UHGV virus genome: UHGV-0135379
Direction: 5' to 3' (one strand)
DNA length: 44,739 nucleotides
Origin: a virus
Shown here in pieces: positions 1,416 through 12,858 of the stretch. A program made the translations under genes and the position numbers. The notes under the pieces are model-generated. The model did not search any database and had not been told where the DNA came from. It saw only the letters and a list, made by a program, of their open reading frames with translations. Every line of letters starts with the position of its first letter. The stretch's first letter is position 1.

Positions 1416-1679
1416 CTATTCCAGAATATTCCTCACGTAATCCTGCAACATGAACACTTTCAGCCGCAGCTGCCGTACGCATTCAGCGTTCTGAACGTCG
1501 ATAGCTAAATCCTCGTCAGCGTCGCTACTCGGCGGTGCCAGCTTGCACGGAGGCTGCATCATCGTCGTATCCGGGGATGGAATTGGCGTTTGCGACGGCG
1601 CGGGATTTGAGCAGGACGCGAGCATCATCGAAAGTGCACACGCTGCGACCAGGCGTTTTAATGTACTTAACGACTTCAC
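1416..1679 (-). CDS. o-spanin (Rz1-like outer-membrane lipoprotein), GTG start
   Basis: Signal peptide with lipobox LASC, Pro-rich mature part, starts inside the i-spanin ORF in another frame. Confidence 0.6.
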   Translation of the reverse strand: MKSLSTLKRLVAACALSMMLASCSNPAPSQTPIPSPDTTMMQPPCKLAPPSSDADEDLAIDVQNAECVRQLRLKVFMLQDYVRNILE

Positions 1680-1911
1680 GGGTGATTACCTCGGTTTCGG
1701 TCTTGCCTTTTGAGTCGGCGGCGGCGGCCTTTGATTCGTCCTGCTGCTGCCGTTGTGTTTTCTTCGCTAACTCAGCCTGCGCTTTCTGCTGTTGCTGCGA
1801 AACGAGATTCGCCCGGCCTTCGCTCCAGCCGCTGCGATACTGGTAAATGCCGTGGGCGTAAGCCAGGATGATGAAACATGCTCCCGCTACGACAGTTGCT
1901 TTAAGATTCAT
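1525..1911 (-). CDS. i-spanin (Rz-like)
   Basis: N-terminal TM helix then charged Gln/Ala/Lys-rich periplasmic region; ATG with AGGGGA RBS; embeds o-spanin start. Confidence 0.65.
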   Translation of the reverse strand: MNLKATVVAGACFIILAYAHGIYQYRSGWSEGRANLVSQQQQKAQAELAKKTQRQQQDESKAAAADSKGKTETEVITREVVKYIKTPGRSVCTFDDARVLLKSRAVANANSIPGYDDDAASVQAGTAE

Positions 1912-2824: not shown

Positions 2825-3283
2825 TCATTCGGGCTTAATAACCTTCGCCGCTTTACTGAAGGCCTCTACGCCATCGGCATCGGTAACTTTAACGAAGTAT
2901 TCACCCACCGCGTTAACCGTCAGAGACAGAGCCTCTGCAGGGGCGTTTACCACTTCCTTACCGTCTTTGTACCAGGTCAGCGCGTATGGTGCTTTACCGG
3001 CCTTAACTTCGACAGTGATAGTCGCGCTGCCGTCTGTCAGTTCTGTGTCTTTCGGTTGTACAGAGAGATACACATCGCCTGCGTCCGCCAGATACGGAAT
3101 CTCATAGAGCATACCGGCCGCAGGCAGCGCAATGCCGGTTTTATCCGCAAACGGCATGTCGTCTACCGGTGTACCTAGTACACTTTCATCTTCAATAAAC
3201 ACCACGTTCTCACCAGAGCCAGACACGCGGGCGTACTGGACTACGCGACGCGACGGTACATCAGTTACTTTGAAAAAGCCCAT
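2825..3283 (-). CDS. Ig-like (Big-type) domain protein, probable virion accessory or decoration protein
   Basis: C-terminal Ig-like segment paralogous to 43598-43948 (shared APY..WYKD motif); ATG with AAAGGGGA RBS; terminator follows. Confidence 0.6.
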   Translation of the reverse strand: MGFFKVTDVPSRRVVQYARVSGSGENVVFIEDESVLGTPVDDMPFADKTGIALPAAGMLYEIPYLADAGDVYLSVQPKDTELTDGSATITVEVKAGKAPYALTWYKDGKEVVNAPAEALSLTVNAVGEYFVKVTDADGVEAFSKAAKVIKPE

Positions 3284-6137: not shown

Positions 6138-7409
6138 TTAAAGTGCGAAAGTCACCGGGACGTTAATAACTGGTTTGCGAATCGGCATTTCATACGCGAT
6201 AGGGTATGTGGTTCCATCATTCTGGTGGTCCACACCGCCTGATTTATCCGGTTCGCCGTTCTTGTCGTAAGCCTGTTGCTCCAGGCATCGTGCGGTAACA
6301 GGGCAAGCCTGTTCATTAATCATGACCATACCAGATTCAAGCGCCTTATTCATCGCCGCTACGCGGTCTTTAACCGGTGGGTTTGTCGATTTAGCGCGCA
6401 CTTCGAAGCCGGCCTGCTGTAACTGGGCAATATCAGATGTGCTGGCGTTGTTACTTTTACGGTTTTTACCGCTTGCGTCGGGGTACATAACGATATAGTG
6501 GCCATTACTTTTCCAGCGCTCTGTTACGGCTCTCACCACATCGGGCGTATCGAACATATCCACCAACTCGGCGACTGCATGCCAGACTTTGCCACGTTGC
6601 ACGTAAACTGTACTAGCCATGTGGCCTACGTTAAAGTCCTGCCCGATATACAGAGTCTCGCCTGGTTTTATTGTTTCGCGGCTGCTGTTTTTCCTGCGGC
6701 CATAGGCGTAATAGACAGTCCCCGCCGTCAGGTTGACGAACTCGCCGTTGATGTAGGCGTCAATCAACTGACCTGGGTATGTGTCGCGTAACGACTGCAC
6801 ATAATCTTCTGGCAGGAACGGGTTAGACAGGGTGGACGCCTGAATCATCTCGTAGCCTGGATTCTTTTTGACTACCCAGCGGTCATGTACGAAACGGAAT
6901 CCTTCCGGGGTAGTGAACACGGAAACGGTATTAGCAGGTTTCGGTGTAATAGGTTTATATGTCCGCGGCAACTGGCGGTTACGGGCGATGACTTTGTTCC
7001 ACGCGTGCTCGGCGTGCTCCATGTTAAGGGTGTCCAACTCGTCGATTTTCGCACGAAACGATTCGTAGCCAACGATTCGTGCTGGATTATCAAGTGTACG
7101 CAGAACAAAATCCCCAAATTGTCCGGAAGACGTATAGATTATGTTGTCAGACTTGTTGTATTTGTACCGGATACCCCAGTCGGTGAGCTTTTCTTCCATA
7201 CGCGGTGCAAGGATGAGGCGCACCAGGTCATAAGTCGGCTCATACATGGCGATGATAGAATCGCTACCACCTTCCATGCTGTCGAGTAGTGCAGAGTTGC
7301 ACATAACTTCGGATTTACCCGTACCGAAGCCAGCTACGAATGCCGGAAACTTGCAATGCATACCGAGAAACGCGCCTTGCGGCTCCGTTGCCGTGATATT
7401 AACGTTCAC
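6138..7409 (-). CDS. Terminase large subunit (GTG start at 7409; alternative ATG at 7361)
   Basis: Walker A FVAGFGTGKS, ATPase then nuclease-like C-terminal half; AAGGTGG RBS before the GTG. Confidence 0.85.
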   Translation of the reverse strand: MNVNITATEPQGAFLGMHCKFPAFVAGFGTGKSEVMCNSALLDSMEGGSDSIIAMYEPTYDLVRLILAPRMEEKLTDWGIRYKYNKSDNIIYTSSGQFGDFVLRTLDNPARIVGYESFRAKIDELDTLNMEHAEHAWNKVIARNRQLPRTYKPITPKPANTVSVFTTPEGFRFVHDRWVVKKNPGYEMIQASTLSNPFLPEDYVQSLRDTYPGQLIDAYINGEFVNLTAGTVYYAYGRRKNSSRETIKPGETLYIGQDFNVGHMASTVYVQRGKVWHAVAELVDMFDTPDVVRAVTERWKSNGHYIVMYPDASGKNRKSNNASTSDIAQLQQAGFEVRAKSTNPPVKDRVAAMNKALESGMVMINEQACPVTARCLEQQAYDKNGEPDKSGGVDHQNDGTTYPIAYEMPIRKPVINVPVTFAL

Positions 7410-7908
7410 CGGACACCACCTTAATTGTTACTTCGCTGATTGGATCGTCGCGTACTTCTTCGGCGACAACTGTTTTATTCAGGCCCAGTTTCGCGGCAGC
7501 AAACGTAGCAGAGATGCCCGCGGCCCCCGTTTCAGTGAAGTATGCCTCTTCCAGCGCCTGTGCTGTCTCCCAGGCTTCTGCAAATGCGGGAATCTCACGC
7601 AGCCAAAGCTTAATAATCGGGATAGTGACTCCGATGTGTAAGGCGAAGCGGGCCAGTGACGGTGGTTTATCCTGAATCAGCGGGCGTTCGTCACCCTTAG
7701 ACGTAGGCACAAGCTCCCACGACGTGCGGTCGAAGAACTCGATTAGTGCATCGCAATAGCCCGGGTCCCACAACGCGGCGGAATTACGGGATGATTGATA
7801 AAGGCTCTGTTTACCGCGCGGTCGTTTACGGCGGCGGTTTGCGCTAACAGCTTCTTCATGTGCAGCTTGTACCACCTCTGGTGATGGCTGCTTAAGTTTC
7901 AGCTTCAT
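7399..7908 (-). CDS. Putative terminase small subunit (169 aa from ATG at 7908)
   Basis: Immediately upstream of and overlapping terL; basic N-terminus; AAGGGGA RBS. Confidence 0.55.
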   Translation of the reverse strand: MKLKLKQPSPEVVQAAHEEAVSANRRRKRPRGKQSLYQSSRNSAALWDPGYCDALIEFFDRTSWELVPTSKGDERPLIQDKPPSLARFALHIGVTIPIIKLWLREIPAFAEAWETAQALEEAYFTETGAAGISATFAAAKLGLNKTVVAEEVRDDPISEVTIKVVSGER

Positions 7909-7999
7909 AGAATCCCCTTGCATATGCGTCTGACCATCAGAGCGCACCAGACGCGCCCTACGCGTCTAAATGGATTATATAAGGGGATTGGGCGGGATG

Positions 8000-9660: not shown

Positions 9661-9806
9661 TTCTTCTCTCCTGCATAAGCTGCTTTAAGTGTCTGCAGCG
9701 CAGCGAACCAGAACGCGTCCGCTGGAATGCTGTTGCTCAGGTTACTAACTGCGATGCGCGCCATCAGTTGCGCGTCTTTGAATGCTTCGATATCTGTGAT
9801 TTTCAT
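9657..9806 (-). CDS. Hypothetical protein (49 aa)
   Basis: ATG overlaps stop of 9806-10006 (TAATG); stop overlaps next start. Confidence 0.4.
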   Translation of the reverse strand: MKITDIEAFKDAQLMARIAVSNLSNSIPADAFWFAALQTLKAAYAGEKK

Positions 9807-10006
9807 TAGTTATTCTCCAGTATTTCTAACGCTTTCACGAGGTAACGTTTACGTAAAACATCAGTCTGCGCGCTATTAGCCCTGCGTATGTAGCCCGCAG
9901 CAGCCCTCATCTGTAGTTTTTCCACCGAACCATTCCCTATTATAGCTGATGCGATACATTTAACTTCGAGTTCTTCGGTTATTTCTATCGTCGATACGTT
10001 GCCCAT
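9806..10006 (-). CDS. Hypothetical protein (66 aa) sharing a C-terminal domain with 12123-12737
   Basis: ATG with GGAGTAGAGAGAA RBS just downstream of promoter 10041-10069; shared motif GYIRRANSA.TD.LR..YL.KALE.L. Confidence 0.55.
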   Translation of the reverse strand: MGNVSTIEITEELEVKCIASAIIGNGSVEKLQMRAAAGYIRRANSAQTDVLRKRYLVKALEILENN

Positions 10007-10040
10007 TTCTCTCTACTCCGTTCTCGTTGTCGATGAAGTA

Positions 10041-10069
10041 AATATAATAGGGTCGAGGATAATAGTCAA
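10041..10069 (-). promoter_or_regulatory. Promoter TTGACT-N17-TATATT on the minus strand, upstream of 9806-10006
   Basis: 5/6 and 5/6 matches to sigma70 hexamers, 17-bp spacer, right after the lysis-operon terminator; carries only a half-box (CCCTATTATATT). Confidence 0.55.
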
Positions 10070-10090
10070 CTAGTCATCACAGAAAATAGA

Positions 10091-10123
10091 TAAAAAAAAT
10101 CCCGGCTGGGTCAGGGCCAGGAT
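10091..10123 (-). terminator. Rho-independent terminator after the endolysin gene
   Basis: Hairpin followed by a T8 run on the minus strand. Confidence 0.6.
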
Positions 10124-10187
10124 AAAACTGGAGAGCAGAGGGATGGAGCAGGAGGTGATTTAAGTATCGTCGGATTAGTCTTATGTG

Positions 10188-10673
10188 TCAACCTTTCACC
10201 GCGCGCCCGATAGCCTCAGCCTCCTGCCACGGTTTACCGTCGAACAGCGCCAGACGACCGGCGGTACGACGACGCAGTCCAAGTATCGGTTTGCCGTTCT
10301 GGTTGATGAACAGCGCCAGCTTAGCCCGCAGAGTCGTGACGTCACCAGAACGCAGCGCCTTACCTGTGCCCGTGGTAGCGGCAATCACGCCAGCGCCTGC
10401 GTTGTAGACCAGGTCACACACAGCGTCGAACTGTGCCTGTGTCAGTGAATGGTGCGCTGCCGCATCAACCGCAGCTACGGCTTTAGCCATATCGCGATTA
10501 AGTAACAGGAGGCCTTGTCCTGGAGTGATGGTCTGCCCCGCCTTAACATGCGGGCCATAGCTTCCATACCCAATAGTCAGGTACTTCTCATTCGGTGTAG
10601 CGCGATACGCGGTTCCGCGGAATCCCTCGAACGCGGCGGTGAATTTGATGCCATTGTTGCTAATGTTTCTCAT
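10188..10673 (-). CDS. Endolysin (T4/P22-type lysozyme-like muramidase)
   Basis: N-terminal ISNNGI..FEGFRG..Y motif typical of phage lysozymes; ATG overlaps HNH stop; terminator follows. Confidence 0.85.
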   Translation of the reverse strand: MRNISNNGIKFTAAFEGFRGTAYRATPNEKYLTIGYGSYGPHVKAGQTITPGQGLLLLNRDMAKAVAAVDAAAHHSLTQAQFDAVCDLVYNAGAGVIAATTGTGKALRSGDVTTLRAKLALFINQNGKPILGLRRRTAGRLALFDGKPWQEAEAIGRAVKG

Positions 10674-11203
10674 AAAGCACCTTCCCGTAATTTATGGTTC
10701 GCGAAAACCCCGTGTATCTTCTCTCTAGCTTCTTCGGCAACTAGCGCGGCTAGTTCTAGGTCCGCAAAGTATCCGTAAAAATACTTAATCTTATGTATTT
10801 TTAATTGAACGTACCATCCTCCTTGTTGCTTCTGCCACATAACGTTCTTAATACCGGATTTGCTGTCCTTTCTTGGCCCTTTGTTGCATCCGTTTTCGGA
10901 TTTGTTGGCTTCACGTAAATTACAGAATCTATTATCACGACCATCGCCGTTTATGTGGTCTATTAGGGAGTTGGGCCATTCCCCTGTCATGTATAGCCAA
11001 GCGAGACGATGCGCCAAGTACCGCTTCCCACCGAAGGCTATGGAGCGATAGCCTGCACAATGGTTGGCGCCAGCCTCACTTCCCGCCCGAGCATTGTGCA
11101 CACGTGTAGCTTTCCATGTAAAAACTCCGGTATCGGGGTCGTAGTGTAAAACCTCGCGCAGCTTATCTGCGGTAAGTCCATTATCTGAAATGTTTCGAGA
11201 CAC
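10670..11203 (-). CDS. HNH homing-type endonuclease (GTG start)
   Basis: LHYDPDTGVFTWK N-terminus and H-N-H/Cys cluster (DHINGDGRDNRFCNL); sits between holin genes and endolysin. Confidence 0.8.
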   Translation of the reverse strand: MSRNISDNGLTADKLREVLHYDPDTGVFTWKATRVHNARAGSEAGANHCAGYRSIAFGGKRYLAHRLAWLYMTGEWPNSLIDHINGDGRDNRFCNLREANKSENGCNKGPRKDSKSGIKNVMWQKQQGGWYVQLKIHKIKYFYGYFADLELAALVAEEAREKIHGVFANHKLREGAL

Positions 11204-11453
11204 GCTTATGTCCTCCGTATGACAGCCACGACTGACGAATCTGTCGCAGCGCTACCAGGGTAATTAATGTCTCAGGCAGCGTCGGTGACATGCTGCCCTG
11301 TAACAGGTGGATACAACCGGCGGCGCAGACAATAGCAGTGAGGATATACAGCACACGACCAAACAGGCCATCATCTACGCTGGGGTGGTATACGTTAAAC
11401 AGCGATGTGCTCCCGATTGCGAGCATACCACCAAACCAGAATAACTCATTCAT
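11181..11453 (-). CDS. Two-TM membrane protein (90 aa from ATG at 11453), possible holin partner or antiholin
   Basis: Two hydrophobic helices; ATG overlaps holin stop (ATGAATGA); track ORF extends to 11546. Confidence 0.45.
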   Translation of the reverse strand: MNELFWFGGMLAIGSTSLFNVYHPSVDDGLFGRVLYILTAIVCAAGCIHLLQGSMSPTLPETLITLVALRQIRQSWLSYGGHKRVSKHFR

Positions 11454-11754
11454 TACCACCTCCGCGACGTGCGATGTATTCTCCGGCGACAATGCCAGAG
11501 AGACGGGAATAAATTGGCATCCAGAGAATAGCAATGATGAATCCAAGGCCCGCTATTTCGCGTTCACCTGCGATACCGAACCATTGAGCGGCGAGAGGCG
11601 CACCGAATACGGCGCACGCAAAGCCAGTGGCGAGAAAACAGAGAGCATCGACAGGGCCGGTAATAGTGGCTTTGTGTTGCCGTAAGCCTATTACCCCACC
11701 AGCTAGTGCGGCAGCGAGAAGCCACCCCGTCACTGTTTCAGTAAATTTATCCAA
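11446..11754 (-). CDS. Putative holin (TTG start with GGAGGA RBS)
   Basis: About three predicted TM helices and a charged C-terminus, 102 aa, upstream of endolysin. Confidence 0.55.
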   Translation of the reverse strand: MDKFTETVTGWLLAAALAGGVIGLRQHKATITGPVDALCFLATGFACAVFGAPLAAQWFGIAGEREIAGLGFIIAILWMPIYSRLSGIVAGEYIARRGGGNE

Positions 11755-11829
11755 GATGAATCCTCCAGGTGCGTATTAAGTATGCAGTAACTGGAGGATA
11801 GCACGGTTAGGAATTATCTTAATAACGGT

Positions 11830-12123
11830 TTATTTATGACGCCAGATGTATTGTCGTCTCTGCGGTTTAGTCGGAATATCATCGTATCCGAGCGATTTCC
11901 AGTAATTAAATAACCGATTAGCGATAGCTGCGCGTTCCTGTGTTTTAAACTCTCCTAGATTCACGGCCTTTCCGTTCTGGAATCCACAGGCGCGGACCGC
12001 TTTGCGCCTGGCCTGAATCTCGGGGTACAGCGCGTTACGGCGGCGCTTGTGTATACGTGTCTTCGCTCTCGGTGACAGCGGCGCAAGGCCGCTTCGTTTC
12101 AGGATGTCAGTTGCAAGAGACAT
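11830..12123 (-). CDS. Hypothetical basic protein (97 aa)
   Basis: ATG overlapping upstream stop (TGATG); Arg/Lys-rich. Confidence 0.5.
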   Translation of the reverse strand: MSLATDILKRSGLAPLSPRAKTRIHKRRRNALYPEIQARRKAVRACGFQNGKAVNLGEFKTQERAAIANRLFNYWKSLGYDDIPTKPQRRQYIWRHK

Positions 12124-12737
12124 CACTCCACCCCCTCCACATGTGTAACTGACCCACAGTTATCACAGACTACAGTGTTGCCGTAGTAAGTTCCGCAGTG
12201 AGCCGGAATGCACGAGCATACAGGTAGTTGAGCGTCTTCCTTTCGGCAACCGGATTGTTCTGGCGCATCCTTACATCCGAGTTCCTCAAGTGCTTTGCTA
12301 AGGTATTGGCGGCGCAGGGTGTCAGTCATTGCACTATTTGCCCGCCGGATGTACCCAATCGCGCCTTTAGGGTCCAGGTCAACGATTGAACGAAGACACA
12401 TAACCTCGTTATATAAACTATCTAGCGCGAGCGTCAACTCCTTAATCTGCACAGACTCGTCACCAGTGGCCTTAGCCAGTCGTTTTACCAGGTCCCCGAC
12501 TTGCGCTTGAAAGCGCAACGCATCATTGCGATACGCGGACAATTGCCCGGTCAGATGTGATATATGGTCGGATTTCTTAATGTTGTCTTCCTGCAACTCC
12601 GCCACCAGCGCCGACGCATCACGTAACTGATTCTTAAGTGACAGCACCTCATGTGCCAGGTCTTCGCACCGGTTGTTATTTACCTGCTGCCGTAGCTGGT
12701 CAATCAGGTACTCGAATACTTCGTTTTTGTTACTCAT
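12123..12737 (-). CDS. Coiled-coil protein (204 aa) with C-terminal domain paralogous to 9806-10006 plus a Cys-rich tail
   Basis: ATG at 12737 with GAGGAG RBS; track ORF extends to a TTG at 12794. Confidence 0.55.
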   Translation of the reverse strand: MSNKNEVFEYLIDQLRQQVNNNRCEDLAHEVLSLKNQLRDASALVAELQEDNIKKSDHISHLTGQLSAYRNDALRFQAQVGDLVKRLAKATGDESVQIKELTLALDSLYNEVMCLRSIVDLDPKGAIGYIRRANSAMTDTLRRQYLSKALEELGCKDAPEQSGCRKEDAQLPVCSCIPAHCGTYYGNTVVCDNCGSVTHVEGVE

Positions 12738-12858
12738 CTTCTGGCTCCTCAACACCTGCAGTGTAGGCACGTTTGAGGTCCCCGTCACAAACAACGACCC
12801 AACCGTGTGTGGCGTAAATCTCTGTTAATTTAGTTACGTCTAAAATTTCGTATTTCAT
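12730..12858 (-). CDS. Hypothetical protein (42 aa), first ORF after promoter 12890-12918
   Basis: ATG with AGAGGAGAGA RBS; end overlaps next start. Confidence 0.4.
   Translation of the reverse strand: MKYEILDVTKLTEIYATHGWVVVCDGDLKRAYTAGVEEPEDE

Follow-up and report, generated by a model that had tools for sequence, protein, structure and literature searches.

Lysis genes and the endolysin 5' end

The stretch analysed here, the 44,739-nt virus genome UHGV-0135379 (called the window, and meaning the whole of it), carries an open reading frame (ORF) for an HNH endonuclease among its lysis genes, and the present analysis concerns the way in which this ORF is lodged in the 5' end of the endolysin gene. 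The best matches of region 9800-12200, among 253 phage records matched, are Escherichia Kagunaviruses, namely BUCT825 (91%) and SHAK7858 (95% over 77% of the query), which place the window in Kagunavirus (Guernseyvirinae). A sequence-only reading had described ORFs for a holin, a partner, an HNH endonuclease, an endolysin and a pair of spanins; all of them exist, and all lie on the minus strand. The features around the endolysin start are the following.

11446-11754, minus strand: holin-like protein 1, 102 aa, TTG start with a GGAGG Shine-Dalgarno (SD) sequence, phrog_2359 holin (E=3.7e-29)
11181-11453, minus strand: holin-like protein 2 (possible antiholin/partner), 90 aa, ATG start, phrog_2508 holin (E=1.6e-32)
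10670-11203, minus strand: HNH ORF, 177 aa, GTG start, matching HNH_3 and phrog_99
11174-11203, minus strand: captured endolysin start, GTG plus nine codons (VSRNISDNGL), equal to HNH codons 1-10; left copy of the duplicated 5' end
10644-10673, minus strand: replacement endolysin 5' end, ATG AGA AAC ATT AGC AAC AAT GGC ATC AAA (MRNISNNGIK); right copy
10188-10673, minus strand: endolysin, GH24 phage lysozyme, 161 aa, PF00959 (E=1.3e-25), phrog_33703 and phrog_7

Consecutive genes overlap, by 8 nt between the two holin genes, by 23 nt between holin 2 and HNH (11181-11203) and by 4 nt (ATGA) between HNH and endolysin, in agreement with the earlier description of an HNH gene overlapping its neighbours at both ends. 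According to hydropathy, holin 1 has three hydrophobic segments in a class I-like topology, and the endolysin is soluble, with no hydrophobic N-terminus and no signal-anchor-release (SAR) or signal sequence. Holin 2 had been presented as a protein with two transmembrane segments: one of them, at residues 28-56, passes the hydropathy cut-off, while the N-terminal one, at about residues 4-22, is recognized by eye only. A scan of region 9800-12300 for promoters and terminators returned nothing better than shuffled sequence, and no transcription signals are claimed.

The HNH ORF is intact and matches phrog_99 (E=1.3e-69) and, at residues 62-105 (window 10889-11020), Pfam HNH_3 (E=2.5e-14, 53 bits against a cut-off of 24.8), with the catalytic DH-N-N motif retained within LIDHINGDGRDNRFCNLREANKSEN. 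A C-terminal AP2-like DNA-binding domain is possible at residues 117-165, where PF00847 is matched with 15.6 bits against a curated cut-off of 33.3 and a low-confidence, single-sequence AlphaFold model has three strands followed by a helix. No paralogue of the gene is present elsewhere within the window, and a PDB sequence search gave no match below E=0.1.

The organization of the site before insertion was obtained from relatives lacking the HNH gene. With the endolysin as query, 57 loci were retrieved from IMG/VR. In 33 loci of Kagunaviruses without the HNH gene, whose holins are 80-98% identical to those of the window, holin 2 overlaps the endolysin gene directly, and the endolysin begins with VSRNISDNGLHF, the same 30 nt found at the start of the HNH ORF in the window. 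The empty junction reads ...GGAGGACATAAGC GTG TCT CGA AAC ATT TCA GAT AAT GGA TTG CAT TTC ACC GCC..., translated as VSRNISDNGLHFTAAFEG, and the native endolysin start is thus a GTG located within the last 23 nt of the holin 2 gene. Compared with the endolysin start of loci lacking HNH, such as L005 (GTGTCTCGAAACATTTCAGATAATGGACTG-CATTTCACC), the opening 30 nt of the HNH ORF are identical at 29/30 positions; past the Leu codon, the window turns to HNH-specific DNA (ACC GCA GAT AAG...).

This comparison, which fixed the insertion point as the sequence-only reading had proposed, shows that the HNH gene sits in frame inside the endolysin ORF, right after codon 10, since the endolysin of the 33 empty loci opens with the same 30 nt as the HNH ORF. 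Given this position, translation of the HNH protein would rely on the SD and GTG that belong to the endolysin, and the protein would carry the first 10 endolysin residues. The earlier description of an HNH gene placed between the lysis genes was right about adjacent and overlapping genes, but the gene actually lies inside the endolysin reading frame, where it uses the endolysin start codon and ribosome-binding site (RBS).

At its other end the cassette supplies a substitute for what it displaced. An SD-like GGGAAGGTG for the endolysin lies in the 3' end of the HNH ORF, which reads ...GGGAAGGTGCTTTATGA and includes the endolysin ATG at 10673, overlapping the HNH stop (ATGA). The replacement codons, after which the sequence rejoins the common TTC ACC GCC GCG TTC GAG, correspond to the ancestral CGA AAC ATT TCA GAT AAT GGA TTG CAT; differences from the ancestral copy are concentrated in codons 5-10 (Ser TCA to AGC, Asp to Asn, Leu to Ile, His to Lys). 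The net insertion is 527 nt. With a new SD, an ATG and re-coded codons 2-10 at the end of the cassette, a full-length endolysin should still be made.

Rfam detected no group I intron at E<=1 in region 9800-12300, the sole match being a chance sRNA (E=0.41). The HNH ORF closes with a stop codon and the endolysin restarts at its own ATG, which leaves no intein-type in-frame read-through. Taken together, these two results indicate that no splicing element is involved.

Spread, decay and proposed loss of the HNH gene

Comparison with BUCT825 revealed a block of complete identity centred on the HNH gene.

10636-11210, minus strand: mobile or conversion tract of 575 nt, free of mismatches against BUCT825

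Outside the tract, about 120 mismatches were counted in 550 nt upstream (~22%) and about 65 in 448 nt downstream (~14%), and between the two phages the holin proteins have identities of only 80% and 86%. The loci with the closest flanks are empty or carry another allele: in L013 the holins are 98-99% identical to those of the window, in SHAK7858 (L002) 100% and 99%.

The same HNH gene, with 98.2% nucleotide identity, occupies the same site in Salmonella Jerseyviruses (SETP7, SETP13, AG11, STP03, SB3 and others), whose holins are unrelated to, and unalignable with, those of the window. In a sliding comparison with SETP7 (L040), identity rises from ~40-55% to ~98% at about 11190 and falls to ~75%, within the endolysin, at about 10640. 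The SETP7-like HNH starts with ATG CCA AAC CGA AAC ATC AGT GAT AAT GGA CTT / ACC GCG GAT (MPNRNISDNGL-TADKL) and is likewise followed by MRNISNNGIKF. An intact protein, with 100% identity, is encoded by the window, BUCT825 and L036 alike; the Salmonella copies differ from it by 2 amino-acid changes in 173 aligned residues, and the phylogeny of the gene is discordant with that of the flanks. Judged from the sequences, the transfer of the HNH tract was recent. Locus L036 (IMGVR_UViG_3300045988_004574), a viral contig from a metagenome, encodes proteins 100% identical to those of the window from holin 1 through holin 2 and HNH to endolysin residue 127, and is probably the same phage or a near-clone.

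About 24 distinct phages carry an HNH gene at the site, among the 253 records matching the lysis region, and 50 empty loci were counted against 13 occupied or remnant ones (63 scored). Most relatives are therefore devoid of the gene, and the site bears a signature, made up of the duplicated, re-coded endolysin 5' end and of the sharp identity block; the sequence-only reading had named an HNH gene present in all relatives, with no such signature, as the outcome that would speak against it.

A second HNH allele, with ~50% protein identity to the first, is found at the same codon-10 site in both genera, namely in the Kagunaviruses SHAK7858, DUEC01 and L018 and in the Jerseyviruses of the S102 group, dunkel and sam. 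It is accompanied by a re-coded endolysin start of its own, MRSMSDNGLKF. In Salmonella phage S102 (L062, 1447-1965) the HNH gene is a chimera, the N-terminal TADKLREVLHYDPDTG being allele-1-like (89.5% nucleotide identity over 57 nt) and the remainder allele 2 (94%), from which it follows that the two alleles recombine with each other.

Copies in different stages of decay were also detected. In L059, allele 2 is frameshifted and cut to 53 aa. In Bas74 (L003) and L009, an in-frame internal deletion of 417 nt, located between GGAGTTTT (11128-11121) and GGGGTTTT (10711-10704), leaves a 38-codon ORF composed of the first 28 and the last 10 codons of allele 1, while the re-coded endolysin start is kept; Bas73, like Bas74, matches HNH at its two ends only. 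Phages of the Bas74 type had been considered as representatives of the empty site and were discarded as such, since the 38-codon remnant joins both ends of the HNH gene. Finally, the Salmonella loci L049-51 and L060 contain no HNH, and their endolysin starts with ATG TCA AAC CGA AAC AT/T AGC AAC AAC GGC ATC AAA, a left copy joined to a right copy at the shared GAAACAT. From this structure we infer a precise loss by recombination between the GAAACAT repeats.

The presence of the gene is associated with the sequence bordering it. The codon immediately following the insertion point encodes Lys (AAA/AAG) in 13/13 loci with HNH or a remnant of it, and His or Gln (CAY/CAG) in 44/50 empty loci (Fisher p=9e-9 for Lys versus HNH state over the 63 loci, uncorrected for shared ancestry). 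As the empty loci with His or Gln include distant outgroups, SDNGLHF is taken as ancestral. The re-coded codons 5-10 are linked to HNH, and re-coding is confined to the bases adjoining the insertion point.

In public records the gene appears under different names. It is already annotated as HNH or homing endonuclease in the GenBank entries of SETP13, AG11, SB3 and DUEC01; elsewhere the ORF is labelled endolysin (STP03) or 'putative class I holin' (S4lw), or is split into two coding sequences (CDSs), as in BUCT825 (L001). The latter copy was evaluated as a possible pseudogene, and this was ruled out by tblastn and by reading of the ORF, which yield an intact protein of 177 aa, 100% identical to that of the window. 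The SHAK7858 record carries an Autographiviridae/Kayfunavirus taxonomy, though its sequence is Kagunavirus-like.

Proposed homing and its alternatives

It is quite probable, in our judgement, that a free-standing HNH(-AP2-like) homing endonuclease gene (HEG) invaded the 5' end of the endolysin gene, took over its start and supplied a re-coded replacement. During co-infection, relatives without the HNH gene would be cut or nicked by the enzyme in the 5' region of their endolysin gene, near the Leu9/His10 codons, a target suggested by the polymorphism, and repair from the HEG-bearing genome would copy in the HNH gene together with a few dozen flanking bases. The HEG-bearing genome would itself be immune: its left copy breaks off at the insertion point, and its right copy is re-coded, from TCA GAT AAT GGA TTG CAT to AGC AAC AAT GGC ATC AAA, with His10 turned into Lys, and for both reasons it should escape cleavage. 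Both homology arms fall within the same conserved endolysin 5' sequence, so that the cassette could move between genera with unrelated holins; the left arm would be further constrained by its dual coding with holin 2, and the combination of this constraint with arms derived from one conserved stretch would explain the movement between genera. The spanins, encoded elsewhere, would complete lysis and are unrelated to the HEG.

Chances are about even that this HEG family represents a distinct insertion strategy, in which insertion at an early codon and capture of the start are combined with a re-coded 5' duplicate that both restores the gene and gives immunity. In that case, both arms would lie inside ~60 bp of one conserved gene, which would explain homing between Escherichia Kagunaviruses and Salmonella Jerseyviruses, and immunity would depend above all on the His10-to-Lys codon.

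Several points weigh against homing as described. A literature search found no published cleavage or homing experiment for this HNH protein or a close homologue, target and immunity being deduced from polymorphism. Six empty loci already have Lys at the diagnostic position; they may be ancestral variants, although we read them as candidate cases of past invasion followed by loss. The AP2 call is under the Pfam threshold (E=0.02) and the structure model is unusable (mean pLDDT, i.e. predicted local distance difference test, 40). These phages are, moreover, highly mosaic, and homologous recombination alone could therefore in principle move the block without any endonuclease.

This last point leads to the alternative in which the HNH gene, inserted once, would be a passenger, dead or passive, that now spreads by ordinary homologous recombination, with no homing. 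The strong mosaicism of Guernseyvirinae, with its many partial matches, fits such a passenger, as do the decayed copies and the purely predicted status of the nuclease activity. We nevertheless hold it to be unlikely: the ORF is intact and invariant in the window, BUCT825 and L036, with the two changes already mentioned in the Salmonella copies, and has kept the DH..N..N catalytic motif; the identity block is very sharp-edged and centred on the gene; two alleles sit at exactly the same codon in two genera; and the linked re-coding is found next to the insertion point only. A domesticated function of benefit to the phage, whether in regulating the timing of lysis or the translation of the endolysin, or as a nuclease acting on host DNA or in packaging, is more improbable still. 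The gene is indeed translationally embedded in the late lysis operon, where it controls the path of ribosomes to the endolysin start, and the deletion remnant keeps both the frame and the ATGA overlap; against this, ~90% of related phages lyse normally without it, some copies are frameshifted or deleted, and the HNH tree disagrees with that of its flanks. The terminase genes are located elsewhere (6138-7947), and the HNH is therefore not packaging-associated.

The sequence-only reading had left it undecided whether the resemblance between the N-termini of HNH and endolysin was a footprint of homing insertion or a coincidence. Within the window alone, the two starts share 15/24 nt over codons 3-10 and 7/9 residues (SRNISDNGL versus MRNISNNGI), and the Ser codons are wholly different (TCA versus AGC), as might be expected of a fortuitous similarity. 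Coincidence is, however, refuted, and its probability practically nil, because the first 30 nt of HNH are a real endolysin start in the 33 HNH-less Kagunavirus loci (29/30 matches) and because the same fusion is made with a Jerseyvirus-type start (MPNRNISDNGL-TADKL) in SETP7-like phages. The footprint interpretation thus holds.

If a homing endonuclease is indeed at work, the locus documents the natural life cycle of a HEG cleanly and through all its stages, in phages of a well-sampled group. Naive sites, sites invaded by one or the other of two alleles, a frameshifted copy, copies with an internal deletion and sites that precise loss would have left resistant are all represented, with boundaries defined at the base-pair level and with a testable prediction of target and immunity substitutions. 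It also shows a selfish gene residing inside an essential late gene without intron or intein. For the engineering of therapeutic Kagunaviruses and Jerseyviruses, the sequence data suggest that the HNH gene may spread in phage cocktails and that it would change both the start codon and the RBS of the endolysin.

Spanins, neighbouring genes and known systems

The spanin pair is located far from the other lysis genes.

1525-1911, minus strand: i-spanin, 128 aa, N-terminal transmembrane segment, phrog_2536 (E=5.7e-55)
1416-1679, minus strand: o-spanin, 87 aa, lipoprotein signal with lipobox LASC, phrog_5672 (E=4.4e-30)

The two genes overlap by 155 nt, with the o-spanin overlapping the 3' end of the i-spanin gene ('overlapped' architecture), and are placed between a Hoc-like gene (2825-3283) and the scaffold gene (629-1387). 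The position assigned to them by the sequence-only reading, at 1416-1911 between an Ig-like head-region gene and the scaffold gene, was borne out by ORFs, PHROGs and hydropathy. The canonical Gram-negative holin-endolysin-spanin set is hence complete in the window, since membrane proteins, muralytic enzyme and two-component spanin were all found, the holin and antiholin roles being predicted. The contiguous arrangement of a lambda-type lysis cassette is absent: a distance of 8.3 kb, which includes the terminase, portal and head genes, separates the spanins from the endolysin. Proceeding 3' of the endolysin on the same strand, about 10 small ORFs are followed, in order, by terminase small and large subunits, portal, head-morphogenesis, Hoc-like, spanin and scaffold genes.

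This arrangement had been put forward as a 'split lysis system'. The presence of spanins among head genes is a conserved, published trait of the whole Guernseyvirinae (PMC6763661, PMC7203180, PMC6139136), and the split is consequently no finding in itself: the distance is ordinary for the subfamily and unrelated to HNH. In Golestan, spanins are ORF7-8, and holins and endolysin are ORF66-68 (PMC7203180); with Golestan and others, the window shares 95-96% identity in the spanin region, where the neighbouring genes are the same as well. K1G, K1H, K1ind and SETP7 were assigned to the 'Jersey' overlapped spanin family by Kongari et al. 2018 (PMC6139136), and in the related phage Schulenberg the two holin genes are described as a 'holin/antiholin pair' (PMC6763661).

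Between the spanins and the Hoc-like gene, 1912-2824 forms a variable cargo slot, in which only ~67% of the query aligns to relatives; other genes found there are those for adenine methylase, RusA and sliding clamp. In the window the slot contains an ORF on the plus strand (2385-2729), opposite to all its neighbours, which belongs to a family of unknown function (phrog_13472). Its product is lipoprotein-like, with a signal, the lipobox LSGC and a second hydrophobic segment, and the gene may be a moron or a superinfection-exclusion gene.

Two further observations concern the borders of the lysis genes. A gene for an HslV-family peptidase ('ATP-dependent protease') is located just upstream of holin 1 in many Kagunaviruses, among them BUCT825 (L001:3175-3615), phiEc3, K-01 and Bas73, in a position where the window has only an intergenic gap of 75 nt (11755-11829); the lysis genes are thus bordered by a second polymorphism of the presence/absence type. 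In addition, the ORFs 9806-10006 (66 aa, downstream of the endolysin) and 12123-12794 (223 aa, upstream of the holins) have in common the motif GYIRRANSAxTDxLRxxYLxKALExL, and the lysis cassette may therefore be flanked on either side by a paralogous segment.

The lysis region as a whole is a standard Kagunavirus holin/holin-partner/endolysin operon invaded by a selfish gene, and entails no new lysis mechanism. In the lysis sets of Jersey, K1G, Golestan and Schulenberg, two holin-like genes stand side by side, the second of them overlaps a GH24 endolysin gene, and an overlapped i-/o-spanin pair is found among head genes (PMC6763661, PMC7203180, PMC6139136). The window is alike in all these features and differs only by the HNH insertion, found in ~10% of sequenced relatives.

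As to the insertion anatomy, the papers found in the search for a prior account refer to HNH or homing endonucleases of Jerseyvirus and Kagunavirus genomes in generic terms only, and a paper on 'multiple endolysin ORFs', considered as a possible prior description, turned out to be irrelevant. The anatomy thus appears to be undescribed so far; the gene itself is of a known, free-standing HEG kind.

The seg and mob genes of phage T4 (SegF, SegG, MobE) are free-standing HEGs capable of 'intronless homing'. Among phage HEGs, the pairing of HNH with AP2 is an established architecture, and frameshifts, deletions that keep the frame and a variable presence count as marks of such genes (PMC10448857). 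Like the T4 genes and IPA-HNH of ICP1 (PMC10448857), the HNH gene of the window is a small nuclease ORF wedged by or into a conserved gene and sporadic in close relatives. Further points in common with these HEGs are the decay through frameshift and in-frame deletion, the sharp identity block with short co-converted flanks, the difference between HEG-plus and HEG-minus alleles at the presumed target and, with the HNH-AP2 type, an N-terminal HNH_3, which in the window may be followed by an AP2-like domain. The window HNH differs from them in not being intergenic: it lies inside the target ORF, after codon 10, borrows the target's SD, start codon and first 10 residues, and mends the gene with a second, re-coded 5' end and a new start, homing being in this case predicted.

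A counterpart to the mended gene may exist in organelles. In Allomyces atp6, Paquin, Laforest and Lang reportedly described in 1994 a mitochondrial endonuclease ORF that inserts at the end of a gene and brings along a duplicate of that end. In such elements, as in the window, the host gene is said to remain functional, with no intron or intein, through a duplicated terminal coding segment, the foreign re-coded copy being in use and the native fragment left as a remnant. Theirs is reportedly the 3' end of a gene, with GIY-YIG or LAGLIDADG enzymes in organelle genomes, whereas in the window it is the 5' end of a phage lysis gene, with an HNH enzyme, and the native fragment is reused as N-terminus and translation start of the HEG. 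With homing endonucleases encoded in introns or inteins, finally, the window HNH shares the location of both flanks in a single conserved gene, which gives portable homology arms; it differs from them in having no splicing element.

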